64,000 bases of DNA from Psammoneis japonica (taxonomy: Eukaryota), in assembly GCA_008632985.1 (NCBI GenBank), contig QPGO01000091.1, forward strand, positions 186,001 to 250,000, written 5' to 3'. This document shows, in pieces, positions 24,170 through 64,000 of the stretch. The notes below the pieces were generated by a model. It was not told the origin of the DNA. It saw only the letters and a list, made by a program, of their open reading frames with translations, and did not search any database. Each line of letters begins with the position of its first letter. Position 1 is the stretch's first letter. Position numbers and translations under genes: made by a program.

Positions 24170-27100
24170 TACACAACATCTCAACCAAAACACATCGAAG
24201 TCACCTTCCTACTTTCACTCAAAACGTTCGCTCAGATCGATTTGAAATTGGTCCATCGTTGCATTTTTAATTGAGGGATGGAAGCTTTGGGGGTCGCCGG
24301 GATTCCACTCCTGCCACAAATGATTGGCACTGCCTTGCATGTCAACCAAATCATTCATAATCCTCGTGTTGAGAGGTGGCATTGTGACTCATTTCTTCCC
24401 CTTTGTTCATTCAAAATGGTGGGCTTGAGCAGAGGAATCTTGAACCCCGAGATGAAACACCCAACTTCTGGCATTGCCGCCATGGACTTTGGAGTTCTCA
24501 AGAAGGGGGTCATTGTTGGTTGTCTCCCCACTTCTCCACTGAGCACAGGCCATGCCCCCAATTTCCCACTGAGGCAATGTGTCACTCTAAAAAAGCTGCT
24601 GCTGTGTTTGACATGTGGTCTCTGTGCCATCAATGGCAACAATGGGGAAAATGTTTGTCACAGTCTGCCACGCACTTTTGTGCTGCAATGTGATGACTGA
24701 ATCTTTCTGCAAAAACCAATTGGCCTCATTTCACTCACACACAGTTTGCCAATGAGGACCTTTTTCACTTTCAACACAATGCCCATTTCCTCCACAGTGT
24801 TGTCACCACCTGACACAAGAAGCATTTCTGTCATTTGTGTTGACAAAGCAGTGAAGAAGGGTCCAAAGTTCTTGATGCCACAATTTTGTGCAAGCCAAGG
24901 TTTGCTTCTTTTCACATCTTCCGAGACTTTTTGTGAGCAAATGTTTGGTTGAATCCATTCAAAAATGCTTCCATGTGAGAACACACACAAAGCATGCTTT
25001 GTGACAGACTCAAAAGCAAATTCATGCATTGGCACATCAAATTGTTTCTGTTGAAGTTGGCTGGGGTGGGGGGAAGCTGTTGGTTGCAACAAAAACAAAT
25101 CAAAACACAAAGCATGCAAATTTTATCCAACCACTTTGATCTCATCTCACAACCCCCTGGCTCTGGATCAGTGTGTGCTGCTTGCATCAATCAACATGAC
25201 ATTGATGCACAGGAGACTCTCAAAAATGCCAGATGGATGATGCACACTGGGGTTGCACATGCAGGTGATTTGTTGCAGTGCCCTCTGGTGCATTTGTGAA
25301 AAACTCTCTACAGAAATTTTCCATGTGTGGATCAAAATGGAGCAACAACTGACACCATCTGTCTGACATCATGCAAGAGGCTCTGTGGCAACCCAGGGTG
25401 TGCAAAGCATGTGCACAGTGTGGCCAACACATGGACTCACATTGGACAGCAGTTTGCACACATCAGTCTTTTTTCAGAGCCAGGTGCTTTTCACATCATT
25501 CCAGTCCCCTGCTGCTCACAGAGTCTGGTGTGCCAATTCTGTGCATTGTTTGTTCTTTTTGTGGCAGTCTGTCAGCAGCTCAGTTGTTTGTGTCACATGC
25601 AAAACCAAGTGTCAACTTTTGCCCAGTTGCATGAAAAATGTTGTGATCAAATGCTAAAACAGCATTGTTTGTGCTGGTTGTTGGCATCAGGACTCCATGG
25701 AAAACAATGTAAGAAAAATGACAAATGCCACAGATGTGCACACACACTGGGACATTGGTTTTGGATCAGGCAGTGACCCTTCTGCATGTGCATGGTTTTG
25801 TGTTCTTTGCATTGGACCTGCACCTTCCTTTTGACACTCTTTTTTTTTTCATGGCAAAATTTTTGCATGCAGGTTTCATCCTGAGCCCTTTCACCTGACT
25901 TGCTTTTGACAAATCAGTGCACAATCAACATTGCCTGCTGCTGTGGTTTTCACTCATGTCAACAGGCCCAGAAGGCAGAAGCTTCAAGAGGTAAAGTCAA
26001 CAATTGCAAGCAAAGGCCCTGGACAAAGCCAGTGTGTCAGAGATGTCAGACCTGACTGCATTGTGTTCACACATGGTCAGGCACCAACTGGCTCTCTTGG
26101 CAGGTGTTCCAAGTGTTGTCTTCTCCACAGTTGTGCACTTTGTGGGCATCAACAACTGGCACAAGAATGCTTTGGGACATGGCAGAGCTGCAACCTCAAT
26201 TGGAAAAAAAAAACAGCGGCAGCCAATTGTCTTGCTTTTGGCACCTGTGTCATTTTGAGCATGGGCAAGCATCAAGTGGTCTGACCAGCTGTTGGAAATC
26301 AGATGGGCAGCCAAAGTGATCATCGACAGCAAAAGGGAAAGGGAAGATCTTGTCATTGTTGAGGGGATTCAATGGCAAGAAAGCCATCAGCAGAGGAGGC
26401 AGAGGTGCCAAGAAACTTTGATCTTGTGCTCAAATGTGGTGTGCCTCAGTCAATGCTGGAATGGAGGAGGGGGGCAGCAGACCAGGACGAGGGTGTGAGA
26501 AGGAGGTTTGGGTGAGTTGGCATCAACAGCTGTGTGGTGCAGAGGTCATGGTGTGGTGGCAGGAGCATGTGAAGAGGGAAGAGATGCCAACACCAGCAAA
26601 AGAGGATGGGAGGTCAGAAGTTTTGCAGGTTCAAGGTGTGTGAACATTGTTGGGGGAATGACACACAGCTGACCACCAGGGGGGCCAGGGTCTGTGAAAT
26701 GAGAAAGGTGGTGCCTTGCAAAGGCTACTGGAGAGCTTGGGCTTGTGACTGCATTAGAGTGAGAAGGTGTGATCACCACAGGCATCAAGGGGGGTGGTGC
26801 ATCCACGGGGCAGGGAGAACCAACATGGCATTGATGATGAAGGTTGCAGAGGCACAGTTTGTGCTGAGCAGCAGCTGCTGGTGGGCTGGTGCAGGTGCCA
26901 GAGGCAAGGCGACAGCAATGAAAAAGCACAAGAAAGGGAGTGAAGGGGATGGCTTGCGAGCATCACTTGCCTGCATGCAACTCTGGCTGGGTTTGGCTCC
27001 TTCTAACTTTTTTCAGATGGTTCATGTCTGATCTGTTGACTTGTCTCTTAGTGGGATCAGGTCTGCAATTGATTGCCCCCCACATTGGCATGAAAAAGCA

Positions 27101-29850
27101 CCAAGTTGGTGCAACCAATGAAAAATCACTTTAATTGAGATGGCCTGGCATGAACAGGCTGCAACTGGCACAAGTCTTGACCACTGAAGCAGCAAAAGGA
27201 ATGACCACCAGCAATAGAGTGATTGCTGGCAAGGAGGATTTGAGCACCAACATGGTCAAAATGACCAAGATGGGTGGATGTTTGGTGATTTTAACAACAA
27301 CAACAACAACAACAATGCATCACAACAAGCACAACATGCCCAGCATGCAGGCAACATGCAATTTTCCCAACTCTTGTTGGAACAAGTGAAAGCTGTGAAA
27401 AAAACTTTGGTTGATGAGGTGGATTTGGCAAAAGAGGATCAAGTGCAAGTTGCTTCCAAGGTTGCCAGCACATTGAATGAAAAAGCCAGCATTTGCAAAG
27501 TTTCATTTGTGAACATTTCTCCCACGCAGGCTTTTGGGTTGGACTTCGATGAAATCAAGAAGAAAGACCCCATGGATGACTTGGCAGATGCCATGGCAAA
27601 ACACACCATGATCACAGTCTTGCCATGCACAGCCACAGCCATGACCACAAAGAATTCCCCCAAAGGATGCAGGAGCAGATTGCACTGACAACCCGCACAG
27701 CACAGATCAGTGCTGTGCCATGCACTTGAGCCAAGCTGGACATCACATGTTGGTCAAAATGGCTGGCTGATGGTGGGGCTTCCCTCCCTTGTGAACAAAT
27801 GGACATGCTGTTTGCCCAGGATGGTTTGGTGCAGGAACAGAAATGTGTTCTCCAACCAGGATGATTTTGTCTCAACAGTGTTTGGCAATCATTGCACCAG
27901 GAACTGTTGTCTTTGTGGGCATGGACGTGAAAGAAAAAGCCATTTTGCCAAGGCATTGGATCTTGCCTTTTGACAGATGCCAAAACAGATGCTCGCCATC
28001 AACAGCTGCAATGTTTTGAGCAGCAGGTCTGTTTTGCGATGGGTGATCAGCAGTGAACAGGCCAAGCGGGTTGGTCAGCAGAATGAGATGACAAGTCCTT
28101 GCTCAAAATCATCAAAACTGCTGTTGTGTGGGCACCCCGTGGGCATCACAGCACACACAGCTTCTGTTTCCTCAATCAGACATTGCTGGGGTGGTGGGAT
28201 CTGAGTGAGTTGTGAGTTGTGTTGGTTGAATGATGCATTTGGGCCTTTTGACAAACACAAATGTCGTCGCAAAAAGGTGTGGCCCGAGCATGAGCCATTT
28301 GGCTTGCTCAGTGCCACACCGCACACAGCAAATGAAGCAATGATGACACAACTTGAACATGCAAGTCTCAGAATTGAGCCCAAAAGTAAACTGACACAGC
28401 CAAATTATTGTCGATCCACCGCAATTATTTTCTCCTCTCCAGATGCCTGCACAATGTCTGAGCATTGTGCCGTGGCATCTTGCTGTGGACCGTGCACTGT
28501 GGCTCCCCCCTCTGCACCGGGGCAATGGTTTGCAGTGCACAGGCAGCAGCATCTGTGAAGGTGCATGGCCATGCATTGGCATGCTGCCAGCAAAGTTACC
28601 CAGATGCCTTCTGGTGTTGGGAGACTTGGAATGATCACAGCAAAATGATTTTTGTCATGGCAGAACCCACCATCCATCTTCAATCAAGTCCTGTTGATGG
28701 GTCCATGCCTTGTCAAATTCTGAGCCTCAAGACAGAATCAACATCAATTTTGAGAGCACCCACTTCTGTCCACTTTGCGATGAGTTTCAAGTCCATCTTC
28801 TTGGACTGGCACATGACCAACCTGACTTTCTGACTGGCCCACAATGTGCAGAACCAACCCAATGGCACATTCTCAATGGTTGGAAGAGTGCTCACAAATG
28901 ATTCCACAAAAAATGAAGTGTGGAAGGGGTGCCGAACATCACAAGGGCAATTTTGCTCAACTCTGTGATGAATGGCTCACAACACACTTGGCAAATAAAA
29001 GAGCACTGCACACCTTTGATTTTGTGATGATTGCAATGACAAGTCATGGTTCAGCACAAGAAAAAACCAGGGTGTTTTGTTTTTGCTGAGCTCAAGTGTT
29101 GATGGCAAGCTTGTGCAAGAACTCAACTTGCTGCCACTTGCCACTTTTGCATCTTTCCTTTGCATGTCACTTTCTCCAAAACTGAACAACAAATTGGAAC
29201 AGCCATGTGCAGTTTCGCAACAACCACTTGCTGTGTGAAAGGAAATGTGGTGCAAAACAACGCACTTTCTTTTTGGCTTTGCTCTGCAAGCACATGGAAC
29301 ACACCACCATTGTCAAATTTTTGTTGCCAAAAGCCACCTGAGATGTCCTTGGTGATGGGATGCTGGCAACAGGAGAGCAGAATTGTGACCCCAGTGGACA
29401 AAGAGCTGCTGACATGACTTGCCACGACCTGGCTGGCAGAGGAAATTTGTTGGGGTTTGCAGAAGAAATGGGGTGATGTCCACACTTCCAACCCCACCCA
29501 CTTTGTGTCCTGCTTTTGCTTGCTCTGGAGGAGGCTGCCATTCACGATGAGCTCTTTTGCCCCAAAGAGAGGCGCACACAGTGCTGAAGGAGTCGCTCAC
29601 TTGACCCAGACAAAAGATCATGTTGGTTGGAGACAAGTGTTCAATGGATGTTTCTCAGTCCTGTGGAATGAAGTGTGCAGAAGATGCATCTGTTGGACCA
29701 ATGTCTCTCTTCCAAATGTCAAGATGAGACCATTTGCAGACTCAACTGGGTTGCTGCTGCTGTCGGAAACCATGGTCGCTCGGTTGCGTTTGGCCGCCGC
29801 GGCCGGCAGGCAGGTCTGGAAGTTCGTCGATCGTTCGTCTCACGGCGGCT
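24170..29850. other. TpA- and CpG-depleted hypermutated island containing degenerate coding and mobile-element relics
   Basis: Only about 20 TA dinucleotides seen in ~5.6 kb, CG rare, TG/CA in excess; ORFs are Cys/His-rich and almost Tyr-free. Confidence 0.9.
25860..26310 (+). pseudogene. Hypermutated, frameshifted paralogous fragment of the 36.1-38.1 kb membrane-protein gene (includes its intron)
   Basis: Aligns with about 36140-36570, e.g. LRSYMVWRRSALLVAIPSVVFS vs LCSHMVRHQLALLAGVPSVVFS and WHKNATGY vs WHKNALGH. Confidence 0.9.
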
Positions 29851-29944
29851 ATCTCACGGCTCACGGCTCGCACGGCAACGTCTACTGTATATCAACTTGA
29901 AACTACTATTAATACTACTGCTACTACTTGTTCTCAACGAGACG

Positions 29945-30574
29945 ATGAACGCTTGGCTAGTTCATGGGCTCCTTGCCGTCATTTCATGGGCTCTTTTGGT
30001 TCCTTTGTCCATTGTTGTGTCAAGTTTGCGAGATTTCTTCCCTTCTCCTTCTCCCTGGCATCGCGACTTGAATCCTGAAGGTTCAAAAGCATGGGCGAAG
30101 ACACACCGGTATCTCACAGAAAGTTGTGTGCTGCTTACAATCATATCCTTTTCCATAGCGGTTCACAAGGTTAACAAGTCGGGAGGGAAGCACTTTCACA
30201 ACAATCATGAACGAGTCGGTCTATTGATCGTTATTTCTTTGCCACTTTTGTGGGTTCTGGGGCGGCTTCTCATGCCACCCAAACAACGCAGGTTTCAGGA
30301 ACCAGCAACGAACGAATCGACGAGCCTGCTACGTGATGTTGAGAGCGGCGATCCACGCGCTTCGCGATTTAGCAAGTTACCTCTTGTTTGGGCTCATCGG
30401 TTGACGGGTCTAGCATTTTCTGTCTTGGCTCTGTGGGAGGTGTATAGCGGGCTTCAGCTGTATGCCAAGCATCAGTACTTGAATGGCTGGTACTCGAAAG
30501 TGTTCTTTGTATGGATTGGAGCTTTGATTGTGATAACTGGGGCGCTACGATTTCGTTTTCGAGGAAGCAGTTGA
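29945..30574 (+). CDS. Cytochrome b561-domain membrane protein
   Basis: Four heme-ligand-like His (VHG, THR, NHE, AHR) in a 5-TM arrangement. Confidence 0.85.
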   Translation: MNAWLVHGLLAVISWALLVPLSIVVSSLRDFFPSPSPWHRDLNPEGSKAWAKTHRYLTESCVLLTIISFSIAVHKVNKSGGKHFHNNHERVGLLIVISLPLLWVLGRLLMPPKQRRFQEPATNESTSLLRDVESGDPRASRFSKLPLVWAHRLTGLAFSVLALWEVYSGLQLYAKHQYLNGWYSKVFFVWIGALIVITGALRFRFRGSS

Positions 30575-30599
30575 AAATTATAAGTGATGCTGTACAGGT

Positions 30600-31140
30600 T
30601 TGAGCGGCAACGTCCGTATGATCTCGGGATGCAAGATGGACAAATAATGAACAAACATCTGGTAATATGTCTCCTCGTATCGTTTCAGCTACCGGATCCG
30701 GCCGGTCGAGGTGGTGCCCGCACATTGGCTCTACTCAATGCATTGTATGCCTACCATTACAATGTGGATGATCATTTGACCTCTGTGCAGAGATTGAACT
30801 GTGGGAAAAGGACTTCACAAAAGTGCCTCAGTTGACGAGCTCCGAGCAATTTGAAAGTCATTATGCTTTCTCACATTGCACCCGAAGATCATGCTGACAT
30901 TCCGTACAGTACCTACTGATTGAAGTCAACCATGTAGCATGAAATTGCCCAATTGCGCAGTTGCCGTAACGATCTACATCATATTGAGAATTACATTATG
31001 GATATGCATGGTTTGAGGAAGAAAAAATTACGTGCTGCTTGTGACGGAGAAAAGGCAGAGTTATCCTCAAGGCTATGTATGCCAAGGTTATAGAAGAAAG
31101 TGAATCTGATGACGATTTCATTGGTATTCTGGTGGGTAAA
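30600..31140 (+). pseudogene. Metacaspase pseudogene
   Basis: Fragments VRMISGC, SFQLPDPAGRGG, PQLTSS, YIMDMHG and YSG in shifting frames with stops. Confidence 0.88.
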
Positions 31141-31695
31141 GCTACGTCTCGTTGCAGACAGCTAGACCTTTTAACTGGAACATTGAAGATCCAATAAACT
31201 GCACTGGGACTTCAGTGTTTTGCGACTCCTTGCCTCACTTTGTTTGATTCCGCAACACTTGTGCTGGTTCCCGCCGGTGTTTGAATCAACTGTTCCCGTA
31301 CACCTTGCATTCAATCATGCTACCATAATCACGCTATCACCAGAAGCATTCAACCATTGACCAAGACATCCAACACCATAACAACGGGCACGATCTTAAC
31401 CGGTGACCCTATCACTCCGACTAGCACACGAATGCAAAGAAGATCTCCACTCCATAAACCAGTAAAGAAGAGAATTCGATCATCGTTCACCGCCTATCGC
31501 AGATAACATTCTCTTCTTATCATTTCATTCTTTACACAAACTACATTTGCTTTGTCTCTTCCTATGGTATCGCCTTACAGGAATCAAGGCATCTCCCAAA
31601 GTAAGTCGCCAGTGCGTTTACTTTGACTGCAAAGACTGGTTCGTCTTTCGTCGTTTCGCATATCTTGAGACGAGCGAGGAGCTCCAACTTAAAAA

Positions 31696-33665
31696 TCAGC
31701 TACCACGATTTGGAACATCGAACTCCAACTGCCTTGTTGGGTTTTCGTGAGCTCCGCAGTAATAAAATGCGGACCATCTTTCTTCGTCGTGCACAAGATG
31801 CAAGGTGTGGACACCGTCCGGCGGAGTCGGTAGGCCATTGATCGATAAATTCTCGGCAGAGTAATGAACAACCCAAATATGTCCAGCACCAATCAACTCT
31901 CCGTATCTCTTAGCCCGCGTATAGTGCTCACGCAATTCCGTGTTACTTGAAGTCGCTTCTAATCCCAGCACATAGCGCCTCCCTACGCATGCTCCGTCGG
32001 GAGTCGCGTCTTCCAAAACGAAATCAATGCGTTGGCGATTACCGTCCATCCGCACTTCAGGGAAGAAGCGCCATACTTTAGGAATCCACGCGCGAATGAT
32101 TGAAGCAAGCTGAGATTGATAAAAGTACTCGCTTGGTACTGGCCTCCTGGCTCCTCTGCCTGCAAGTTTGTACGACCAGCGAACGGCTTCGGCTAGATCG
32201 TTCAATGGAAAGTAGGCCGTGCTGTCCAAGAGTAGCATCATCATATTCAAATTGCCGTCTTCCGTCATGGGCAGAGAGTCGATAACCACTTGACGACAAT
32301 CTTGAATAACGATTTTTTAAATTGCCAGTGAACAAACCATAGAACTGGCGATGACGACTTGATTTGGACCCGACGCATCCCTCACCATGCCGACGGTTTT
32401 CAAATAGTCTAGAGCTTCCGGATCAATAGTATCGGATGATACACTGGTAGTGCTGCTCAGAAACTGCCTCGAAAGGGCTATGCGGGCGGCTTTCCGCAAC
32501 TCATCGTCGCCAGTAAGGTCCAAGTGCATCCGTCGCATTGTGGGAAAATAGTTAAACCAGCTGAGGAGTCGTTGACGTACCCACTCCAGCCATACCGCAA
32601 GCGTCAACTGCCTGTCTACACCCGTTGATTCGGTGAGTAAATGAATTCGGATTTCTTCAGCAATTGCCTTGCCGCACATGTTGACGAGCCCCGCGTGGCC
32701 ACCAGCCCGACGGTGAATGTCCACAATGACCTCCGATTCAACATGAAAATGAGGGCGACAAGCCAAGTACTCCCTGAACATATCTTGAACTTCTTCTTCT
32801 GTCAAGAGTGGGGCAGAAACCGCATCTCCGACATTAAACGGAGATATCTTTCCAATAGTGTTGAGTCGGATCATAGAAAAAACACCGACGATAACAACAG
32901 AATGAAGCATGTGATCTGGTGATGAGTTCTTGAGCCCGCGAAATATTGATAGAATCGCACTTCTTGTTTCTTCTTTCATATCACCGAGAGTATCAAACTC
33001 GTCAATGAAGAGAACATACTTCTTGTCGCGCTTCAACGTCGTATTATTGTTTTGGTTCCAGATTTGACTGAATTCGGGCCCGGAGGAGAATCGCCTTAGA
33101 CCGAGAGTTGCGGCGATTGCTTTTCCTTGCAAAATATCAGAAAAAAGAGTTCCAGAACGAGTCAATGTTTCCCCCTCTATCAGCCAGAGTAATGTCCACG
33201 TTCAAGCAGTGGTATTGTGTTTTGAGATCATCGCAGGCTTGCACCATTCTTGTGGACTTTCCGACCGCTCGTGGCCCGTGAAGCATCACACACTCTCCTT
33301 TTTAAATCCTCTCGTACAATTCAAAGTTTGTTTCTGTTGTTGGGACGACAAAGTGGTTGCCGCGAGCGGCTTTGTTAATTTGACCACTGACCGTAAATTT
33401 TCGCTTATCCGGACTAACCTGGACAGCAGACAAGTTTGAGGAAAGTTGGTCCACTTCACTCTTGATTGCAATTGCATCGTCTTACGTTTCTTCGGTGTAT
33501 CCAACAGCGGCTAGGGCTTTCTTCGCCTCCTCCGAGAGGCTTTTCCAGTAAACCATTTCCTTCCCGTGTGTTTTGCGCCCTAAGCAACAGAAGTCTGCGG
33601 TGAGTGTTGGTACGAATGCAATCAGCGAGGACGTTGTGTTTGGCGGGTGCCCGGGCAATGTTCAA
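31696..33665 (-). pseudogene. Crinkler-like P-loop ATPase plus C-terminal restriction-endonuclease-fold protein, disrupted
   Basis: Walker A LHGPRAVGKST, Walker B VLFIDEFD, SPFNV, GGHAGLVNMCG, then PSE..Y / RIDFVL / EHY / IWVVHY; in-frame TAA at about 33302 and 32317, +1 frameshift in a T-run at about 33141. Confidence 0.75.
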
Positions 33666-35720: not shown

Positions 35721-36149
35721 CTCTCTGGTGGACTTTACACTGGAATCTCTAGAGCTGGGAGAAGTCTCTCCAGTGGAGAGTCTATTATTTCCTCCTTGCA
35801 CCAGGTGCGTAAAGGCGTTCCTGCCTCATTCGACTGACTCCGCTGCAGGCAAGAACTGCGCGTTTGTCTGGAAGATGGGAGTCCTGTCCAAGTTGAAGGC
35901 GCCTTCGTCGATCTCACGTCAGTCTCGACGTGCAACATTCAAGCCGGAATTAGCCGGAATTCCGAATGCAAGTGCTTTGATGAGGCGCGGATCTTTCGCT
36001 TACGCAGCTGCCAGAATTCGGAGCACTTTATGTTTCGAGGCACACGCAGCTTTGTGCCCTCGACGCGTGCTGTAGCACCTGCAGGACGCCTCCTCTACCT
36101 TTCAACACCTCGACATTCTTGATTCTAAGCAGATTCTTTTTCACGCAGG

Positions 36150-46728: not shown

Positions 46729-46859
46729 AATCATGCTGGAGTTGAGCTCAGTTCGACCTGGTAGCTCTTGTGCCGTGTACTGGTGGATCGTTCCTTCTCA
46801 GGTATCTGAGAAACTATTATAAATTGTGGATTCTCGGTTGCAATCCAAGAGGTGGTTTA

Positions 46860-51302: not shown

Positions 51303-51669
51303 GCTGACCAGCTGATTCAGCAATATGGGATAACTGAATTGATACTAGGATCTCGGGCGACGAAGCCTGTTGCGCAGAGAGGTTGATGAATCACGTTGTC
51401 CACAGTTTTTTTTTTGTGTGGATCTTTATTTCGTGCAAGAATTTGTGCAGTTGGGACTTCACCTCTCAAATTTTCATTGCGCTCTTCGTGTGATAGTTAA
51501 GCACCCGCTACTGTATTAGCTATTGCCTCAATCTTGTTCAAGACAAAAATGAAATTTTAAATGACTATGTTCTACGCTAGGTTCAACGTAATGAATGATT
51601 TAATGTTTCGAGCTTGAACAGAACCTTTTCGTGTGAGTTTTGAATCTACCAATTAGGACTCTGCCTTTC

Positions 51670-53495: not shown

Positions 53496-53569
53496 GCTTT
53501 ACAATCGCACAGATGGATTTGACGGCGCTCCATTATAGCTTAATCTCAAGATTCGGAGTTGCATCAAAC

Positions 53570-54000
53570 CATATGATGGACCCATTTACGTGCATAGAAA
53601 TGAAGAAGAATGGCGTATGGCATATGATCCTTCCTCTAAAAATGCCAAAGTGACAACGGATGGCGTTGCAGGGTACATGGATTCATTTCACGGATATTTC
53701 TCGGAAGACTACAGCTCGGCTTCCTTGAGCAGGAATGCCGTCAGTTGCGTTCACTCCGAAAGACTTGGGTTTTGGGCTTAAAAACAAATGCCTTTGCTCA
53801 AGTTTCTAACCACTGCCGTGGATGTTGTTCCTTGGACCCGTGGCATTTCTCGGTGCTGTCTCAGACAGCAGAAGAAATAAAATGTACAGAAATAGAGCCT
53901 TGGAAAAAGGTCTTTGACCGGACGGATTTGATGGTGATCTATCTAAATTGACCTCAACGACATCGAGACGAACGATTCCGATGGCTCTAGGCTTGTGTAT
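53570..54000 (+). pseudogene. Second degenerate copy of the EGF-gene 3' end, not TA-depleted
   Basis: tttacgtgcatagaaatgaagaagaatgg and tttcacggatatttctcggaagactaca match 46253-46420. Confidence 0.8.
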
Positions 54001-54029
54001 TGGTGGTTCGTTCCTTTTGAGGATCAGAG

Positions 54030-55925
54030 ATGCTGATGTCCTGATTCCTCGGCTGCAATCGAATAGGTGGTTTTCATAGTTCCTTCTTGTTCAACGTGAT
54101 CCAGAACTGCCACTGCTCGCTCTCCACATAACCACAGCCATGGCAGCGCAGTGTTGTGACATATCTACAATTGCTTTGCACAACAAAGCTTCGGCATCGT
54201 CATCGGTTTGTTCCATATGCTGACTGGCTTCGGCCGTGCTAGCCAACAAGGCCGACATGATTTTGCCTCCATGCTGAGGCATCATGGGGTAAGCGCCCAT
54301 AAGGAGATTGGCTAAAGCAATCAACGACGCAAGCTGCACGCGTCTTCCATCGACATTATAATCCCAACTCAAAGAGGCAGCAAGCTAGTCAACCCCACAC
54401 GACCCATTTCTAGCGAATCAGCCTTCAGTTCCATGGCATGCTGGAAAAGCAGCGGAACGATACCACCGACAAGCAATGCAACAACCAAGTGATCGTCAGT
54501 ATCCCTGTCTCTGAAACTATTCGTTGCAAAATTTGAAGAAGCTGGGCGGTGGCTTGACGGCGTTCCTTTTGTCGAGACGAGACTTTACCAAAGAAGATGC
54601 TACGAGACATGCAAATCAAGCGAGCGCAGGTCCTTCTCGACAGCCACGACAGGCGAGTTCCAACACGGAAACAATACCGTCACCGAATTCAGACAGTGCG
54701 CCACTAGTAGCTTGGTCGAAAAGATGAATTAGTGCGCTTGCTCCCATTGCTTTGTGGGTGCTGCTCGAGGAATCCAACAAAGCATAACAAACCGGAAGAA
54801 CATCTTCCAAGACGGTAGCAGTGACATGTGGCGATGACAAGAGCGCAATGAAATTGATCGCCACATGAATCCGTGACGGTACCTCCTCGAATGGCATTTC
54901 CGTTTTGGTGTGAGCATTCTTGGTCCCTAACGGAAAGTTCTGCGGTGGTTTGGAAATTGCCAACGATTCCTCCGTGATCTCCTCGGGAAACTTGTCTCGT
55001 CCAAAGAAATGAGCTCGAATGGACCTTGCCATAACTTCTATACCCAGTTCACGGCAAACGCGTCCCTGAAGAGAATCAAAATCATCTGCTGTTTTGATAA
55101 AGCACTTGCCCAGTGCATTCCAGCAACCAAGTGCTGCTCGAGTTGAATTCCGGAAACTGGGTCGTCCCACCCTGTACCGTCCAATTGAATACTATCCCAG
55201 TAATCGTCTTGAAAGAGATTCACATTGCATTGAAAATTTGCCGGTGGGTAGGCACAGTTCTCTATGAAACTGACGGCATTTCCTGGGAGATCCTTGGTCA
55301 CATTCTGTGGAGTCAGTCGAGGTGTGCCGAAGGCGAGAAGTGTAGTTGCAACCATGGAGAGAAATTCTGGATCCTCATTGTCTCCGTCGAGTAACCAAGT
55401 GCATGATATAGGATCCTCAGCATTGTAGGAAGTGTAAAATTACGTAGCATATCTATAGCTTCTTTCTCGAGCTCTTTGTCTTTCGTGTTGCTGCCGTCAA
55501 CATTGTAACGTCGGTTGTAATGCGTGCACGGATTTCTTAAATTCTGCAGGAACTTTTGTTTTGCTTAGACCCATCGTTTCCTTCATAATTTCGCACAAGA
55601 GCAGTTCATAATGCTTCAAAACCTCATTTCCACAAGCAGTCAAACGATAATCCAAGACATTGCCGCGCACCGTTGTCACGTAACCCTCCACGAGACGTTG
55701 TAAGGTATCTTGTGGTGAATCTAGCTCAAGCAGTCGTTCCACAAGATGTGTTACAAAGGGCGGTAAGCTCATTGGCTGACCCAGAAGCTCATCAAAATAT
55801 GGTGGATCCACCATCACCGCTGTTTCATGGTGTATAGGTTGCTTGTAATGTTCAACCAGCGTCACCAGCGCCGATTCAACTTTGTGCTGAGTCGACGATG
55901 ATTCCTTGATTTGTTCGATCGGCAT
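54030..55925 (-). pseudogene. TTI2 (TELO2-interacting protein 2)-like helical-repeat gene with several frameshifts
   Basis: VLEDVLPVCYALLDSSSSTHKAMGASALIHL resembles the Tti2-domain core; coding split across at least 5 ORFs in different frames. Confidence 0.55.
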
Positions 55926-56353
55926 GTTTTCTATATTTCAAATCACATGGACAGAAAGAGTTTCGAAACGTGTGGCAAGAGCAACAAGCAACAAGTGATT
56001 GAGTCGTCTCGCCCCGTTGCTCTAAGCAGGAAAATAGGGGGGGTACAGACGGAAGAAGAGGGGGGGGAGAGGGGGAGCGAAGCGACCCCGTTGCTGTTGT
56101 AACAGCAAGAGAGAAGGAAGCAAGAGAGACAACGAAGGCAGCAAGCAAAGAAGTGAAAGCAGCAAGTTGGGGGGCGTCTTTGGAAGTGAGATCGTCGAAG
56201 GCGGTCTGATCGCCAGTGCGTTTGGGGGGTTTTCCAGTACAATTTGTACGCACAAGAAAACACGTAGGATCTGTCCAGAGGTCCCAAATACCCAATCGCA
56301 CTGATTGACAGACTGTTTTAGTACAAATTCTACGTAACTTTCTTCGACAGTCT

Positions 56354-59300
56354 CACTTCCGAAGACGTCCCCCAAAGTGATGCGTTGTTGCGTTTTTCGG
56401 GTCTTTGAATGTGAAGCACATGAGCCAATGTTGCATAAAAAAGCTTGGGTTGATTTTATTTAGGCGCCACCGCCCCCCATTTCTCGTCTTCCATCTTGGT
56501 CCCAACTAAAGACGAAACAAAGGCTAGAACCATAACACTAACAATGAATTTACATTTACAGGCTACTTTGATGAACAATGTTCATCATGTGGTGCTCGCC
56601 CTCGAGCAGCAACCCCCAGCAAGTTTGTTTTGGAAAGATGGAAATCCCTTGCACGGTGGCAACAGAATTTTTGAGCAAGATCCGACTGAAGATTTGGCGG
56701 CACCTGCAGTGGTGGCCAAAAAGTTGGTAAACTTGCCCAAAATGGATTTACAGGAATTGGAACACAATGTGGTGCACAATGTGGTGCAGTGGGGACGAGT
56801 GGCGTCTGTCTCGTGAGATCCTTTTCTTGAGAATCTGCTGACTTGGATTTTTTTGCGCTCGGCCCGTCAGGCAGCATCGGCGGTGGCTGCTGTGTCTCGT
56901 GGTTCATCTTGCATGGGTTTGCCACAGTTGACATAGGATTGAACCGAGCTGAACATGGGTTTCTTGTCCACACTTGTTGCACATGCATCGGTCAGGGTCA
57001 CTTGCCACTGCTGCGCCGGTTGCAGCTCTTCTTGTTTCCAGCTGCACTCTCACCCTTTCCAATTGTTCCGGGTGCACTGAAAAATGTCGCTCGCCATTAT
57101 CTTCTTTTAATTCTTCAACATTCTTGTGCACCGGATGAGGGACTCCTGCTTTCTCCGCCAGCATGTTGACGCATTGGAGCTTGCTGTGGTTGAGGAAAGT
57201 GGGAACGCCGCAAAAGGCGTGCGGAATCTTGGCACGCTCCTCAGCCGTCATTTTGTCAATTCGGAGACGCTCTCGTGTTGATGTGTTGCATTCACACGTT
57301 CCCGCAAGGCACAATGCATCCATTGGTGAGCTTCTTGAACCGGTGTTTCCGAAATGCTTGACGATGTGGTGGCATTTTTCAAGCTTCGATTCCGTGCCAG
57401 TGGTTGTCACACAACAAGTGTCGAGCTTGCACTTGGACCATTTTGAAGGCTTGACAACTCTGTACAAGTCTTCACATGGCAGCGGCTCATCAAGTCCACG
57501 AGCTGACAGTGTTGCATTTACAACCGCCGACTTCGCATCTTCGGCAAAAAGCGGCTTCCCAGAATCTGGGTCGCACCGCCCGCCCGCCTCTGCCGCTCGG
57601 GAGACGCAGAGCACTTGTGCCGATCGAACCAAGATTCAAGATTGTTGTCACGTGTTTCCAGAGGGTAAGTCCACCTTCGAATGTGCTTTTTGCAATTGTT
57701 CCACTTCTCACTGTTCTTGATGTCTTCAATTTCTTCCTTTGAGTTTTTCTTCCTGCCAAGTTTTCCGAAGATAAGAGCATCAATCACCCTCGCCTCGTCG
57801 GATTCATCGTTGTACCGCACGCAATCCTTTGACTCACGAACCGCACGACAACAGTCAATGTGAGGCCTCTCAATGTCCGAATGATCCGGTTGGTCCAGTG
57901 CCAAAGACCAAGCCTGCATGCAACATCCTGACCAAAAATTTGCTTCCAAAATTCTTCCTCATTTGGCCACGTGTCCAAGCGATGAACTTGAGGGTTGACA
58001 TTCGGATGCCTCGCAAACTGTTCCACAGCATGAGCATGGTCTTTTGTTTCCAAAGTTGGCACTGCTGCAGCTGTGCCAATTTCTCCTGTCTCTGTGGCCA
58101 TGGTGAAGAGTCCCTTTCCGTTGCCATCTTCACAATTCTTCAATTGGTCAAAAGCATGGTCGGAGGCAACACTGATGCGACAACCCACCAATTGAATTTC
58201 TCGTGCATGCCGAATGTTGTCGCTTGTGCCAGTCTCTGTAAGATTGGATTGCCTGACAGAATCATCATGTCTCTCACATTTTGTCCTGTGGGTCCATGCA
58301 ACCAATCCAATCCTCAAACACCGACAGTGCAGTCACATTGTCTCCGACTGCTTCTTTCAACAAAGAACAGTGCATCTCCTCTTTGTCAAGAAAAGTTTCA
58401 CCTCTTTGTTGATGAAGAAAAGTAGAAATCATCGCCGTTGCTGTGCTTTTTCATCGCATGGTCAATGCATCGCGACGTTGGAAGCGTTGGATGAAACAAT
58501 GGATTTGCGGCCGCATGTCGCAGGTCAACGGGACAGCTTGTTTGGAGAGGCCTCGGCAGCTGCTCAATAGCCTTGCATCATTCCCCTTGCATCTGCAACC
58601 ACACTTGTTGCACTCATGCATCATTGATGTTGCCCAATCAGCAGGTCCTGTGACGCAAAAAATTGGAGTTGGCGGATACTCCTTCTTGACATCAAACTGC
58701 TGGTGCATCATCTCACCATTGCATTCCTCGTCAATGCACTCCAAATGTGTGCTGAGGCGGTTCAATTCCCAGCGGACGATGTGAACTGCACCCCTTCAAT
58801 CTCACTGTAGAGGTTGTCAGGAGTTTTTGTTGTGTCATCACGTGGCACTGTAAATGACATGGGCACCAGGAGGGAAATGCTTCTGATGCCATTGGAGCTT
58901 CTTGGCATTGACATCACCACCCATGATCTCATTCGAGTCGGCATGAAACCGAGACAGGCACAAGTCCAGAAGACACAATGTCAAGGCCTGCACAGGTGCA
59001 GGACAAGAAATTTTCTTCTTTTTGCATGTGTCAACTCTTTTGCGAATCTCTCTCTTTGGCACTTCTCGAGAAAGAGGGTCTTCTTCAACATCAGTGGAGG
59101 AACCCATGGTGCTGTTTGATGTGACGGTGCTGACGGCATTGGTGGCAGCAGTGTTGGGCAAGTGGGTTGCTGCAGATGGCTTGTTGTTTTTTGAAGCCCT
59201 GGTGCCATTGTAGAACAGTGCCTCCATGCCTTCCTCAGTTGGGGCCTGACAACTCTGCATTTTTTGGCATTCTTTCTTGCATGCTGGCAGCGAAGCGGTG

Positions 59301-59927
59301 GACAGCCGCGTTTTGCTCGGTGCTCATGTTCTTTCCACAGATGGATTTTGGGCAGCTCGCATCATGACCCTTTTTGCAGGAAGGCCCTTGTTTGCACCTC
59401 TTGCACTCAACAACCTTTTCTTGAGTGGCGTGACTTTTTGGCAGAGTCAGAATTTGTGATTCTGCCTCCGCCGCTGGTGATGTTGTAAACCGAGGCGCAT
59501 TTTTTCCCGACAACTTAGCGATTCCAGAAAAAGCTCGCTCCTTTGCTTTTTTTGTGGCAGGCTTTGAGCCTGAGACTGAATGCCCATGGTGCTGGGAAGC
59601 TTGCGAGAATGGTGCTTCTCCATTCTGCTGCAATTCCTTCTCTCAGAACTCTCTTGTGCAGGTCGGCACTGATGATGAGTGAGATGAAAAAAGACCGGAG
59701 GAGTTTGAATTTTTTGTGGGGTGTCTTTGTCCGAGCGCCACCGCTCAGATTGCGGCGCGTCCGTCTAAGATGGATCAATCAACACGGCTGTGTCTGTGTG
59801 ACAGTGATCGTCAAACAATGATGATGTGCATTCTTTCAGAAAGCGTCAAGTGTCATGACGTGCATTCTTGAAATGAAGTGTTCTGATTGGTCCAATCTTC
59901 CATCGGCAGGGGGCTTTCAACGAAGTG
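56354..59927 (-). mobile_element. Degenerate DNA-transposon-like element with TpA-mutated DDE-type transposase-like frame
   Basis: Colinear fragments: CxxC zinc-binding region, SDHAF, ATETGEI, DTWP, RLGLWHW..RI, ESKLE..H; Tyr largely replaced by Cys/His; weak terminal inverted similarity tcacttc...ccccc / ggggg...gaagtga. Confidence 0.55.
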
Positions 59928-61199
59928 ACAGGGCACAAGCCATGGCAAGACCGTCGCGGCTCGCGGCAGGCAGGCCACCGAAACGAGACGGGATGCATGC
60001 AGCGAGCAAGTTGAGTGAGCACAGGCACACACTACACACACCAACCCCACACACACACAACACACAACACAACGTCACAATTTGGCAAACATCCTTCTTC
60101 AACTGATTGCTCCTCTGTCCACCCACCTTGTGCAAGTTCATCACACTGCATCAAAATGGATTTCGGAGAGAATTTCGCACCCATTGTGCAGGCTGGCACC
60201 TTGATGTCAACATTGCTTGCGAACAAGAGCAGCAAGAAGCCATGGTGCGAGTCAGCGACGGCCACTTCTTCAACGATCAATGGCTTTGCAAAGAAGGTGA
60301 ACTGGACAGCTGCCATGAGCTGGTTGACAAGCATCCGGTTGTCTTGCACACAGCAATGCATTGCGATGAGGCCAAAAAAAATGGCGCGGGTGGTCTTTCA
60401 TTTGTCCATGATCAACGCCGTTCCTGGGATTTCTGCACCTGCTCCACCATGCTGAGTGCGGGTCGTCGGTGCATGTTTCCATTCCCTGCCTGACAGACTT
60501 TTGTGCGTTGGACCAGATCTGTCACTGTGCACAAGAGGAACATGGAAATCTGCAGATCTGCATCATCATGGGACCCCAGCACTTCAACATTGAAACGATT
60601 GAATGACTCATCAACAACAACGAAGCGGTGCAAGCTGCTGCACAGAAACTTCACATCAAGCAGTTTGGTCATGATGATGGAAGCCAAAGTGCAAAATTCT
60701 TCCATGCAAAAGCTGTTGTGTCTTCAGGAGGAGCAATGGTGGGATCCTGTGACTGCACTGTGGCGGCTCGCTTGCATCGCTGCGAACATTCTTCTTTGCC
60801 AGCTCCTGATGACACGGACTGCGAAGGTGTCCAAACTGAGTTAAAATGTGCTTGGGACATGATCGCATCAGATGAACTCAAATTCCAAAGAAAGTGACAC
60901 AGGCCACAAAATGACTGAGTGCAGGAGACATTTTCAATCCGCACAAGAAATCCAAAGCATGGCCAAGATGGCATTGGGAACTTTGGTTCATCTGCATTTG
61001 CAGTTCCTTTGATTGGGTTGGCTTTTGTCTAAACTGTCTGCTTTGTCCCTGATTAAAAGGGTTTGAACCAGATCCAAACAAGATGATGGTGCTCTGCAGA
61101 ATTCTGCACATTGTCAGCACTGACACAAAAGCCGTGCCAAAATGTGACAAAGCAGTGAAAAAGGGTCTTGTCAATGACAACTTGGCAGAAATGGTGGCA

Positions 61200-64000
61200 G
61201 CAGACACCAGACAGGCCAAAGTGGAAAAACAGCTGGTGGGACAATGACCGGAAAGAGTCGCAGCAAAAACAACAGCAACATTCAAACACTTGCGCCAATG
61301 TGCCACATTTTCTTCTCTCAACATGGAGTGCCACACTCAGCTTGGGTTGGACACAGCACAAGCAACAGTGCAATCCTTGAGCCCAAAGTTCAGCAGCCAA
61401 GAAAGAAATGTTCCAGCTGGGGGGGGGGGGGGGGGGACCTCGCACTGCTGAACTGTGATTTCAACAGTTTTTTGGATTGCATTGCATGTTGCGCACGTGC
61501 ATTTCTGCATGTGACATCCTACGAAATTGTTTCATGCTCCCTGTTTTGCAAAGCCAAAGGCTTTCTATTTTCAACATTCACGAGAATGAAAATGTGCGGG
61601 GTGCATTCTTTGGTGTCTGCAGAACATGCCTGGGCAAGCTGTTGATGATGTGCTTCAAGTGTGGAGGAGGAGACACATTTGTAAAATTGCCTCTTTCTCT
61701 GTTGGTGATCATGATGTGTGTTTTCATTGCTTGACGAATTCATTGCGGAGCTCGCACATGGAATTCTGTGGGCCAAATGTCACACGGAGTCCCACCTGGA
61801 ACTGGAACCCATTGAAAGCAAGCTGAACCTCCCTCTTCATTGCCCAGCTTTCAAAACAAAACAAGTGGCTTTCATTCAATTTGTTGTTCTGTCACATGCC
61901 ATGCAAGAAGGGATGTTGACAGGATGTGCACATGTGCCATGGCTGGCCACCATCATTGCAATGTGAAGAAGGACACATTGAACAGCGCACATTGCCAACA
62001 AACCATTTTTTGCATTGCAAAACAAGCAGGGGGGCATGTGGGCAAATGCCTGATGAGTTGAGTGAATCAGCTGTTGAGTGCAACAAATGCACATCAGGAG
62101 CTGTTGGCACATGAGGGAAGACAGTTGGATCTGGATTTTTTTCATTTGGGGCCACAACCAGATGTTTCTTCTTCAAACTTTCTGTGAAAAGAGCAGCAGC
62201 TGCAAGGCTGGCTTTGCAAGCACCAGTCATGGGACAGCACTGTGCAAATGCTGAACATGTGTTTGTGGCAAAGGTTGTTGTGGGAGTCAGTGCCAGCATT
62301 CATTGTCTCACCCCCAGGCTTGTCATGGATGATGTAAGAAACACTTCATTTCTGAGCAAACTTGTGGTGGAATTTGTGCATCAGATGAGTGCCAGTTGCT
62401 TGTGGATGAGACCAAGGACATTGCAGTCACCTGTGAGATGCCTGTTTGAAAACAAAAATGAAGAGAAATGCAGTGTGATGCTGTTTCTTGGCAGATGCTG
62501 GGTGGTCACAACTGCCTTTCTAATCACCCTTGTGGACATTGCAAATGACAACAATGATGTTGCAGATTGCCTGGATTTGCTTTGGATGACAGCATCCCCA
62601 TTTTCAAAAGTGTCCCCCCAAATGCAGCAATGTCATCTGGTGCAAATGGTCCAGAGTGTTTTGGTTGGTGCATGGCTAAAATGAGTGCCTTTTCAACTGG
62701 TCAGCCGCTGGGCACATCTCTTGCCTGTGCTGTCCATGATGCAAAAAGAAACAGGTCTTGTTTCAACAAGAATGAACAGCTTGCAAATGGGCTTTGCAGT
62801 TGCACAGATGGATTTGAAATCACTGCATTTGAGCTCAATCTTATGATGCTGAGATGACAAATGTCCGCTGGGTTGCATCAAACCACATGGACCTGTTTGC
62901 GTGCACAGAAATGAAGAAGAGCTGTGCATGGCATGTGGTTGTTCCCCCAAATGCTGCCAAAGTGACAATGGATGGCATGGGGGCTTTTGGCTCAAAAATA
63001 AGTGCCTTTTCTTGTTCAAGTTTCTGCTCACTTCGTTGATGTAATTCATTGCACCCATGGCATTTCTGGGTGCTGTCTGAGACAGCACAAGAAAACAAAC
63101 CTTTCAGAAATGGCAAGTGCCCAGGAAAAAGGTCTTTGACAGGATGGATTTGATGGTGCTCTGTCTGATTCAAACTCAACAATGTTGAAATGAACAACTC
63201 CAATGGCCCCAGGCTTGTGCACAGGTGGTTCATTCCTTTTGAAGGATCAGAGATGCTGATGTCCTGATTCCATGGCTGCAATCAAATGGGTGCTTTTCAT
63301 GGTTTCCTGCTTTCCTTCTTGCTCAATGTGATGCAGAGCTGCCATTGCTTGCTCTCCACATGGCACCACAGCCATGGCAGCACAGTGTTGTGACACATCT
63401 GCAATGGCTTTGCACAACAAACCTTTGGTGTTGTCAGTGGTTTGTTCCATGTGTGTTGACTGGCTTCGGTCATGCCAGCCAATGACAAGTGACAAGGCCA
63501 ACATGATTGTGCCTCCATGCTGAGGCATCACAGGGTGAGCACCCATTGGGAGATTGGCCAAAGCAATCAACGATGCAAGCTGCGCAATCACGATGCAAGC
63601 TGCGCGCATCTTCCATTGGCGCTGCAATCCCAACTCAAAAGAAGCAGCAAGCTGGTCAACCCCACATGACCCATTTCCAACAAATCAGCCTTCGGTTCCA
63701 TGGCATGCTGGAAAAGCAGCGGAAAAATGCCACCAACAAGCAATGCAACAATCAAGTGATTGTCGGTGTCCCTGTCTCAGAAACCATTTTGCTGCAAAAT
63801 TTGGAGAAGCTGGGCGGCGGCTTGACGGCATTCCTTTTGTTGAGACAAGACTTTGCCAAGAAAATGCTGTGAGCCATGCAAACCAGGCAGAGTGCAGGTC
63901 CTTCTCAACAGCCATGACAGGTGAGTTTCAACATGGAAACAATGCGTTGCCCAGTTCAGAGTGTGTCACAAGTGCCTTGGTTAAAAAGATGAAGGAGGGC
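61200..64000. repeat. Hypermutated segmental duplicate of about 52330-54740 (runs off the window end), with a ~450-bp insert at about 61415-61850
   Basis: Colinear matches 61261~52383, 61860~52565, 62350~53055, 62875~53561, 63225~54000, 63900~54635; TA and CG both depleted. Confidence 0.93.

Follow-up and report, generated by a model that had tools for sequence, protein, structure and literature searches.

The stretch of DNA analysed here, called the window below, comprises 64,000 nucleotides of the genome of the diatom Psammoneis japonica (GenBank assembly GCA_008632985.1, contig QPGO01000091.1, positions 186,001 to 250,000 of the forward strand), in which the spaces between ordinary genes are filled by five islands that have lost almost all of their TpA dinucleotides and are rich in TpG and CpA. 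All coordinates count from the first nucleotide of the window. Scanning of the whole window in 500-bp intervals for the observed/expected (O/E) ratios of TA, TG/CA and CG revealed that the TA ratio drops from 0.3-0.9 to 0-0.13 at the five places named in a preliminary description of this DNA and also at 7.8-8.2 kb, and that the mean TG/CA ratio climbs from approximately 1.0-1.4 to 1.5-2.1 in the same islands. The five islands lie within approximately 50 bp of where the preliminary description had put them and, as it had stated, span approximately 18 kb. Their refined limits and those of the short tract are as follows.

7832-8233: tract at 7.8-8.2 kb
24211-29849: island 1; 20 TA (O/E 0.05), CG O/E 0.18, TG O/E 1.80, CA O/E 1.90
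33791-35735: island 2; 5 TA (O/E 0.04), CG O/E 0.44; contains a hairpin with 37-nt arms at 34639-34733
43323-44612: island 3; 3 TA (O/E 0.04), CG O/E 0.37; lies between two divergently oriented genes
51699-53499: island 4; 8 TA (O/E 0.06), CG O/E 0.38; right border inside a gene copy (C2, below)
56565-64000: island 5, running off the window end; 34 TA (O/E 0.07); heterogeneous

Across the five islands, TA O/E was 0.04-0.07 compared to 0.57 outside, TG O/E was 1.61-1.85 (1.15 outside) and CA O/E was 1.65-1.90 (1.19 outside), in agreement with the preliminary description of islands nearly without TA and rich in TG and CA, set in DNA of ordinary TA content. CG O/E was likewise reduced, to 0.18-0.48 from 0.98 outside, a CpG depletion absent from that description. 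With the 0.4-kb tract counted as a sixth domain, the ranges become 0-0.07 for TA and 0.18-0.54 for CG, and the low-TA total reaches 18,513 bp, in which 70 TAs remain. In pooled composition (17,981 island bases against 45,615 outside bases), the O/E ratios inside and outside were 0.06 and 0.57 for TA, 1.73 and 1.15 for TG, 1.77 and 1.19 for CA (for TG/CA together, approximately 1.75 and 1.17), and 0.37 and 0.98 for CG. The remaining twelve dinucleotides and the base composition were nearly identical, with a G+C content of 0.484 inside and 0.475 outside.

The TA-poor islands are far beyond chance. TA O/E of at most 0.2 together with TG/CA of at least 1.5 was found in 60 of 255 500-bp intervals. 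The longest gap without TA measures 1095 bp, compared to a maximum of 401 bp in 100 dinucleotide-preserving shuffles and of 601 bp in 2000 runs of uniform TA placement, and 27 gaps of at least 250 bp were observed where chance gave 1.06 on average and at most 6. The borders are sharp to approximately 50-150 bp. At the left border of island 3, TAs stand at 43316, 43319 and 43322 and the next only at 43688; at the right border of island 1, the TA at 28996 is followed by the next at 29850, 29883 and 29888. Island 1 fills the space between an SGNH/GDSL-like open reading frame (ORF), which ends at 24062, and a cytochrome b561 gene, and starts approximately 110-150 bp past the end of the former. A separate 251-bp TA-free stretch at 14868-15119 lies in G+C-rich low-complexity DNA, beside a 90-bp tandem repeat and a 12/24/36-bp GC-rich coding-type repeat (14181-14348, 14686-14798), and is not an island.

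The direction of the change can be read from a tandem duplicate, one of 13 repeat pairs found by self-comparison of the window, in which only one copy has been altered.

7336-8301: copy 1, a partial gene fragment that bears the young hypermutated tract
7698-8233: young tract, with a core at 7832-8194 (363 bp) and a left shoulder at 7698-7830
8302-9267: copy 2, unmutated, continuing without a break into the remainder of the minus-strand ORF 8877-9884; 59 TAs, ordinary density

The unit of 966 bp (322 codons) consists of the 3' 393 bp of the ORF and 575 bp downstream, with 2 bp of microhomology at the duplication junction (7336-9267). The two copies differ by zero indels and 26 mismatches, every one a transition, so that their identity is 97.3% in plain letters and 100% in purine/pyrimidine coding. 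In 25 of the 26 mismatches, copy 1 carries an A:T to G:C change, and 21 of these 25 destroy a TpA of copy 2; the other four affect ApA (three) and CpA (one), and the 26th mismatch is a CpG to TpG change. Conversion of TA sites was complete in the core (18 of 18 at 7832-8194), partial in the left shoulder (3 of 12 at 7698-7830) and nil at 7339-7625 (0 of 26) and 8234-8299 (0 of 3), which makes 0 of 29 sites outside the tract. All 25 changes thus fall within approximately 500 bp, compared to none in the other 470 bp or so. The stop triplet of copy 2 at 8877-8879 has become a sense codon in copy 1. Since copy 2 has an ordinary TA density and a continuous ORF and copy 1 is a fragment, the change went from TA to TG or CA in copy 1. 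The tandem arrangement is given as assembled; alternatively, two haplotypes may have been collapsed in tandem by the assembler.

The same directional change, which the preliminary description had proposed to underlie the islands, was found in copies of genes whose unmutated paralogues lie in ordinary DNA of the window. It had also placed gene duplicates in the islands, and three were identified there (the relic, C2 and C3).

36094-36702: normal gene, source of the island 1 relic
25823-27091 (plus strand): gene relic in island 1, a duplicate of 36094-36702 broken by approximately 650 bp
44756-47233 (plus strand): EGF-like source gene with an EGF_2 Pfam match, unmutated, with duplicates in islands 4 and 5
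52285-54728 (plus strand): gene copy C2, left part mutated (island 4) and right part normal
61164-63993 (plus strand): gene copy C3, mutated throughout (island 5), a paralogue of C2 and of the source gene

The island copies carry TA to TG/CA and CG to TG/CA changes relative to their unmutated paralogues. The relic at 25823-27091 is 70.6% identical to its source in plain letters and 87% in purine/pyrimidine coding; the normal TAs of 36094-36702 read CA at 6 sites, TG at 4 and other letters at 3, with none kept, and its normal CGs read CA at 12, TG at 6 and other letters at 3, again with none kept. When the normal part of C2 (53767-54728) was aligned with the island 5 stretch 62981-63993, its TAs were found as TG (15), CA (10) or other letters (3), with none kept, and its CGs as TG (21), CA (16) or other letters (4), with 8 kept. 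Over four pairs of normal and island paralogues, 64 of the 72 normal TAs read TG or CA and 2 were kept. Plain identities of 97.3, 79, 79.6, 72 and 70.6% in five repeat pairs rose to 100, 90, 91, 85 and 87%, respectively, when transitions were ignored. Transversions and indels occur in the island gene copies as well, and their frames are broken.

The homology of C2 to the source gene extends to approximately 54511, in normal DNA past the border of island 4. A three-way alignment of the source gene, C2 and C3, which is noisy, assigned 10 lineage-specific A to G changes at TpA to the copy that is mutated throughout and 0 to the normal part of C2. Islands 4 and 5, which hold copies of one gene, show TG against CA at 16 sites, which would be expected if part of the conversion had been independent in the two islands.

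The surviving TAs are a biased sample. Among the 70 left in the islands, 28 stand in the context YTAR, 39 in mixed contexts and 3 in RTAY (Y, pyrimidine; R, purine), compared to 292, 1002 and 524, respectively, of the 1818 TAs outside (chi-square p=8e-9; odds ratio for survival of YTAR versus RTAY, 16.7). Back-mutation from the TG and CA of the islands would predict 22% YTAR, 52% mixed and 26% RTAY. Forty converted sites, from four non-redundant pairs, have TAY on one strand and TAR on the other; at 28 of them the change had struck the TAY strand (binomial p=0.017), and with the addition of a fifth, partly redundant pair, a 3' C was favoured (25 wins, 10 losses) and G was least favoured (11 wins, 23 losses). 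Taken together, the survivors and the choice of strand point to 5'-TAY-3' as a preferred target over 5'-TAR-3', the opposite strand reading 5'-RTA-3'. The off-target changes (n=4) give a 5' neighbour rank of T >> A > C.

TG and CA are equally frequent in the islands (2001 and 1929), and runs tests of their order gave z values of -0.9 to +1.5 for the five islands, with outcome strings such as cGcGGccGGcGG showing no blocks. Such interspersion speaks against one burst on a single exposed strand and fits many independent hits over time. The left/right bias of TG versus CA outcomes in the young tract is suggestive only. A model of strand resection and single-stranded exposure was dropped, given the flat runs tests and the merely suggestive bias of the young tract.

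Loss of CpG follows a different course. In copy 1 of the tandem duplicate, 1 of 14 CpGs had changed in the core and 0 of 39 elsewhere. In island 5, CG O/E per kilobase was 0.75, 0.79, 0.46, 0.65, 0.34, 0.13, 0.09 and 0.49, and TA O/E was 0.03-0.12 in every kilobase; the left part of this island is a mid-copy repeat with most CpGs retained, and the right part is gene copy C3, in which CpG is nearly lost (37 of the 49 normal CpGs of C2 read TG or CA in C3). In addition, CpGs are dense inside the outer 100-300 bp of several TA-free zones, with 14 at 29764-29846, 7 at 44570-44597 and 15 at 51710-51871. The near-intact CpGs of the fully converted young core, the graded CpG loss and the CpG-dense edges indicate two processes that differ in speed and footprint. 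TA erasure is fast, complete and slightly wider, whereas CpG loss is slow, confined to the core and at least tens of times slower. Judged by its CpG decay, island 1 would be the oldest.

The simplest explanation of the CpG component would be that the islands are methylated, as repeats often are, and that their 5-methylcytosine is lost by deamination. Transposons of diatoms are CpG-methylated, by DNMT5a in Phaeodactylum, and DNMT4 relatives are present in many diatoms (Hoguin et al., 2023, PMC9998398). The CpG decay of methylated transposons resembles the present case in the CG to TG/CA changes of repeat-containing domains, but it accounts for the slow component only and cannot remove TpA.

The relation of the islands to repeated DNA was assessed with contigs of a sequencing run, X1, that were built from exact 31-letter words (longest, 315 kb). 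At a likeness of at least 80%, 3,101 contigs were placed along 43000-62999, where single-copy depth is approximately 56; summed contig depth is not copy number and was used only to tell many copies from one. The summed depths were 13,739 at 43667-44333, 513-1,940 at 56340-60341, 12,720-18,286 at 61009-62342 and 104-179 at 51671-53004, compared to 47-62 in the genes between islands. A summed depth above 100 was found in 11 of 14 island bins and 3 of 16 non-island bins (Fisher p=0.003). The islands are thus associated with repeated DNA, namely elements resembling miniature inverted-repeat transposable elements (MITEs), mid-copy repeats and gene duplicates.

43935-44194: MITE-like palindrome in island 3 with 21-bp terminal inverted repeats, high-copy in X1, zero TA
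56167-56375: second MITE of 209 bp with terminal inverted repeats of approximately 25 bp, 190 bp outside island 5, unmutated, 8 TAs
approximately 61648-61811: small repeat unit in island 5, with X1 loose ends

The self-complementarity of 43935-44194 rises from 0.67 in plain letters to 0.80 in purine/pyrimidine coding, and loose ends of X1 contigs fall at 43935 and 44194. The second MITE has a summed X1 depth of 4,455, and one X1 contig skips 56167-56405, a presence/absence polymorphism; this element is probably a recent insertion. The end of the unit at 61648-61811 resembles the terminal repeat of 43935-44194 with transition differences, and the unit may be a half element of a related family. 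Purine/pyrimidine-coded alignment found no overall homology among the three elements.

The preliminary description had held that island content is redundant wherever it can be identified, which is true of most of the content that could be assessed, including the 11 high-depth bins, the gene copies and the MITE-like element of island 3; its inverted-repeat elements were recovered as the hairpin at 34639-34733 and the MITE-like palindrome. It does not extend to two places. The flanks of the palindrome in island 3, 43323-43934 and 44195-44612, are each reproduced by a single X1 contig (43000-43957 and 44169-48282) at a depth of 56.6-56.8, so that island 3 consists of a repeat with single-copy flanks of approximately 600 and 420 bp, all of it TA-free. 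The bin 60342-61008 likewise has single-copy depth and is TA-free. In the other direction, three metacaspase (Peptidase_C14) paralogues within 20 kb are 75-78% alike in purine/pyrimidine coding, and none is TA-depleted.

11391-12128 (minus strand): metacaspase segment
19905-20714 (plus strand): metacaspase segment
30589-31137: metacaspase segment

Redundancy is therefore neither necessary nor sufficient for TA loss.

The transposase-like frame that the preliminary description had reported in an island was not recovered: none of the 154 island ORFs of at least 70 aa matched a Pfam family at E<=0.001, the search returning only four weak rows at chance level (E 0.004-0.009). A 155th ORF of this size is the flanking cytochrome b561 gene and was set apart. 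A word-based protein search with the island ORF 56907-57635 gave 0 of 808 candidates at E<=0.001. Stop-to-stop island ORFs reach 200-284 aa (for example, 35028-35834 and 52136-52987), and the two longest translate to Cys/His/Gln-rich junk; with TAA and TAG nearly gone from the islands, long ORFs arise by chance. Rfam at gathering thresholds and a tRNA scan identified no RNA genes in the window.

Of the 31-letter words sampled from 22000-31999, island 1 included, 95% are present in the X1 contigs, which also match the flanks of island 3 apart from 8 differences over 958 bp. This agreement, together with the transversions, indels and broken frames of the island copies, makes a basecalling artefact unlikely. 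Differences between the window and the X1 contigs numbered 1,244, of which 40 were listed individually; 7 of these 40 lie inside island 3, all of them exchanges of CG or TA against TG or CA, and 31 lie in the genes at 44.6-51.4 kb, where transitions and transversions are mixed. The differences in island 3, from the window to X1, are as follows.

43490 and 43675: CG to TG
43689: TA to TG
43860-61: TG to CA
43862: TG to CG
43880: CA to CG

The islands are thus still polymorphic. X1 and the window may come from one sample, in which case the differences in island 3 would be haplotype or strain differences.

In a second run, X2 (labelled 'DNA?'), depth varies by gene, and a joint from 50648 to 50739 skips 90 bp with CT..AC ends, a minus-strand intron. 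X2 is probably a transcriptome of the same sample. Its contigs cover the genes between islands, including 44701-46363 and 46387-49973 with the EGF-like source gene, and none falls in an island bin, a missing cover that we do not take as silence.

The genes of the window are those of a diatom. The SGNH-like ORF (22014-24062), which precedes island 1, has 230 homologues; every named one is from a diatom (Fistulifera, Odontella, Phaeodactylum, Nitzschia and Seminavis, and also Bacillariaceae) at 35-45% identity, and the best others reach 49-52%, with no match to the ORF itself. The EGF-like source gene has 6 homologues at E<=1e-5, five of them at 41-49% identity. Long intron-free ORFs are in keeping with a diatom nuclear genome, and so are the PPR, ankyrin-kinase, GNAT and metacaspase genes. 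Upstream of the tandem duplicate, an open frame of 1536 aa on the minus strand (2515-7125) is without a Pfam family; two repeats lie within it, one of 48 bp at 3470-3601 and a tandem repeat of 177 bp at 5160-5493 (1.9 copies, 94% matches).

Hypermutation at TpA has previously been reported in only one, unrelated alga, the chlorarachniophyte Bigelowiella natans, for integrated viral DNA (Mettrop et al., bioRxiv 10.64898/2026.01.13.699255, April 2026). In its mutation-accumulation lines, kept in laboratory culture and called from Illumina data, 231 of 302 mutations fell in two integrated viral regions, and 230 of these 231 were A to G or T to C, all at TpA; the hypermutation occurred in only 11 of 15 lines, at approximately 6-9e-7 per site per generation, or about 1000 times the background of 3.5e-10 elsewhere (Mettrop et al., 2026). 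The B. natans genome contains 124 clusters of at least 3 kb that are poor in TpA and rich in CpA and TpG, and its coding sequences with low TpA are enriched for transposon domains. The authors favoured adenine deamination with an ADAT2-like protein as the candidate editor and genome defence as its role (Mettrop et al., 2026).

The islands of P. japonica are the finished footprint, in a diatom, of this kind of TpA to TpG/CpA hypermutation. Both systems share near-exclusive A to G or T to C change at TpA, its confinement to domains, and a TpA-poor footprint rich in CpA and TpG. They differ in host (a rhizarian there, a stramenopile here), in specificity (100% TpA there, slightly looser here with 21 of 25) and in targets, which are integrated viruses there and MITE-like elements, mid-copy repeats, host-gene duplicates and single-copy flanks here, where no viral gene was found. 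The depletion is also deeper here, with TA O/E of 0.04-0.07 and razor-sharp edges, compared to 0.45 in the region of a nucleocytoplasmic large DNA virus in B. natans, and the CpG loss and TAY preference are features seen here; the available portion of the preprint text makes no mention of CpG, of trinucleotide, flanking or neighbour context, or of diatoms or stramenopiles. On the other hand, the mutation rate was measured live there, and a sequence footprint alone is available here. We found no report of TpA depletion or A to G hypermutation in diatoms in the literature searched, and the available portion of a Phaeodactylum mutation-accumulation study describes the usual GC to AT bias with no mention of TpA (PMC6604790). 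What is new here is thus the lineage, the targeting of repeats, duplicates and flanks, the near-total erasure with sharp edges at genes, a tract of approximately 0.4-0.5 kb caught in the act, the TAY preference and a footprint separate from that of CpG.

The direction, spectrum, context, completeness, sharp limits and repeat association of the change are all features of the window itself, and their likely explanation is domain-targeted TpA hypermutation of repeat-linked diatom DNA, accompanied by slower CpG decay, with an adenine deaminase as the favoured agent. Domains of 0.4 to more than 7 kb would form on repeated DNA, extend a few hundred base pairs into the flanks and stop at neighbouring genes. 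Within them, the adenine of 5'-TpA-3' on either strand would be changed to guanine, turning TA into TG or CA until almost none remain, with 5'-TAY-3' converted first and 5'-TAR-3' last, and a second, slow process would remove CpG in the core of the same domains. The agent would presumably be an enzyme acting on DNA in a marked, silenced chromatin domain, for which an adenine deaminase of the TadA/ADAT kind, converting A to inosine that is read as G, is the candidate, as proposed for B. natans. It may serve to defend the genome by inactivating repeated or foreign DNA. Given the rates measured in B. natans, a domain would lose all of its TAs in approximately 10^5-10^6 generations, ahead of ordinary mutations, which matches the tandem pair.

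A TadA/ADAT enzyme would suit the sequence preference. In nature TadA, from which adenine base editors have been derived, acts on A34 in U-A-C-G, a context in line with the 5'-TAY-3' preference suggested here. The known TadA/ADAT enzymes need single-stranded loops, and to our knowledge no natural enzyme of this family erases TpA from chromatin domains. ADAT2 has been considered as a DNA editor (as cited in Mettrop et al., 2026).

Several observations weigh against this explanation. The targeting is imperfect in both directions, as single-copy flanks are mutated and the high-copy MITE at 56167-56375, the EGF-like source gene and the three metacaspase paralogues are unmutated. Only one copy of the tandem duplicate is mutated, and over only approximately 500 of its 966 bp, unlike homology-driven repeat-induced point mutation (RIP). 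No strand-coordinated runs were seen, unlike a burst on single-stranded DNA, the usual substrate of TadA- and APOBEC-type enzymes. The 154 island ORFs contained no viral or transposon domain at the Pfam threshold given above. A survey of 606 kb of diatom-like metagenome contigs (80 loci with SGNH-like homologues) revealed no convincing island: 1 of 2305 500-bp intervals passed the criterion (L039:1-500), contained 7 TAs and is not an island, and the longest TA-free runs were at most 374 bp and not TG/CA-rich on both counts. Because metagenome contigs break at repeats, this survey is weak evidence of absence. Lastly, adenine-directed and thymine-directed change would leave indistinguishable signatures in the sequence, and the mechanism is what we infer from that signature.

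Thymine oxidation is the main rival, which we consider unlikely. A dioxygenase of the TET/JBP type would oxidise the T of 5'-RTA-3' in silenced DNA to 5-hydroxymethyluracil or 5-formyluracil, which would mispair with G and yield T to C. The signature is strand-symmetric, so that TA to CA can be read as T to C and TAY as RTA on the opposite strand, and the outcomes interspersed on both strands would fit a mark on double-stranded chromatin. Moreover, 5-formyluracil mispairs, and the 5-hydroxymethyluracil of dinoflagellates favours TpA. However, the off-target changes, read as A to G, follow the order T >> A > C, which is the 5' neighbour order of adenosine deaminases, whereas read as T to C they would fall at TpT (three) and TpG (one), and the B. 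natans authors also favour adenine deamination (Mettrop et al., 2026). Adenine deamination on marked chromatin remains our best-supported guess.

Less likely still is a passive origin without a dedicated enzyme, in which poorly repaired silent chromatin gathers a lesion at TpA, such as the T-A photoproduct formed by ultraviolet light or unrepaired adenine deamination. That genes, on which transcription-coupled repair would operate, bring the domains to an end is consistent with this possibility, and the CpG decay in the same domains is itself a passive process of this kind. Such an origin would nevertheless have to remove 18 of 18 TAs from 363 bp without change in the rest of a 966-bp duplicate; it would need to run orders of magnitude faster than background mutation and to be confined almost wholly to one dinucleotide. 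The observation in cultured B. natans of hypermutation at approximately 1000 times the background in 11 of 15 lines also suggests regulation (Mettrop et al., 2026).

We consider it very improbable that the islands are edited retro-copies, made when double-stranded repeat transcripts underwent A-to-I hyperediting, were reverse-transcribed and entered the genome by insertion or gene conversion. Hairpin-forming inverted repeats do occur in islands 2 and 3, both strands are affected, and the 5' neighbour order resembles that of ADAR enzymes (U > A > C > G). Yet the young tract lies in place within a tandem duplicate and ends inside it, island 4 ends inside a gene copy, and the single-copy flanks of the MITE are affected; conversion at 100% with 84% TpA specificity is unlike ADAR hyperediting, and ADARs are regarded as animal-specific (PMC6651903). 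In animals, retroelements and viruses are edited by ADAR, which changes A to I in dsRNA, and by APOBEC, which changes C to U in ssDNA (PMC4866542); this editing resembles the present case in its clusters of a single transition type in selfish DNA, made there by deaminases, and in its neighbour preferences. The substrates of ADAR and APOBEC are RNA or reverse-transcription intermediates, and the clusters that they leave in new copies are strand-coordinated, whereas here resident chromosomal DNA has been changed in place, on both strands and with near-absolute TpA specificity.

Two further explanations are scarcely credible. If long-read basecalling had systematically misread modified heterochromatin bases and the errors had entered the assembly, a mixture of TG and CA would result from misreading of both strands; however, the X1 contigs, whose depth of approximately 56 and length of up to 315 kb speak for accurate reads, reproduce 95% of the sampled words around island 1 and also the flanks of island 3, though X1 may be the source sample of the window. 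Moreover, the island copies carry transversions, indels and lost frames, CpG loss is graded, and in B. natans mutations of this type were detected with Illumina data (Mettrop et al., 2026). Finally, that the islands arrived poor in TA and CG as foreign or transposon DNA, as some island DNA without a paralogue in the window and the possible descent of high-copy families from an already mutated master copy might suggest, or that the 'normal' copies were the mutated ones (by classical RIP, CpA to TpA), is countered by the in-place conversion of host-gene copies, tandem duplicate and single-copy flanks, by the 16 sites of TG against CA between islands 4 and 5, as expected under independent conversion, and by the open frames and TA O/E of 0.57, like all other genes, of the normal copies, of which the source gene has homologues.

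RIP of Neurospora and other fungi is the functional analogue of the proposed TpA hypermutation. RIP changes C:G to T:A mainly at CpA, creates TpA, lowers G+C and affects both members of a duplicated pair along the whole of the length that they share. It depends on a methyltransferase-like protein of the RID/DNMT4 type and on a sexual phase. Like RIP, as described in PMC7296669 and PMC2621366, the process in P. japonica is transition-only and dinucleotide-specific, disables duplicates in place, leaks into flanks and can be followed by a dinucleotide index. The chemistry is opposite, since TpA is destroyed here and G+C is unchanged; one tandem copy is hit in part, instead of both over their shared length; and an island that ends inside a duplicated gene (island 4) and the mutated single-copy flanks are further departures. 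With two defining features failing, direction and action on both copies, we did not assign the islands to RIP.

A broader reading, which we regard as possible but doubtful, is that diatoms and chlorarachniophytes have in common a RIP-like defence, a mirror image of the fungal one and maybe ancestral to the stramenopiles, alveolates and Rhizaria, in which a TAY-specific editor of the TadA/ADAT family would act at chromatin nucleated by repeats or foreign DNA, spreading over a few nucleosomes and stopping at active genes. As part of the same tentative proposal, every TpA of a domain would be rewritten within approximately 10^5-10^6 generations, independently of cytosine-methylation decay and faster than it. 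If this is true, the editor would be a natural adenine base editor that acts on chromatin.

The occurrence in a diatom means that TpA hypermutation is not limited to one lineage. The footprint constrains the search for the enzyme by its TAY preference, its action on both strands without runs, tracts down to approximately 360-500 bp, edges at genes, and an extent and speed greater than those of CpG decay; as diatoms are genetically manipulable, candidate deaminases or thymine oxidases are directly testable. The preliminary description's suggestion that TA O/E could mark such domains from sequence alone works in this window, and the ratio offers annotation a marker at no cost. Given the loss of TAA and TAG, gene predictors may call false genes in the islands. 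Fresh duplicates are pseudogenised before other changes appear, which should shape the evolution of gene families in these algae.

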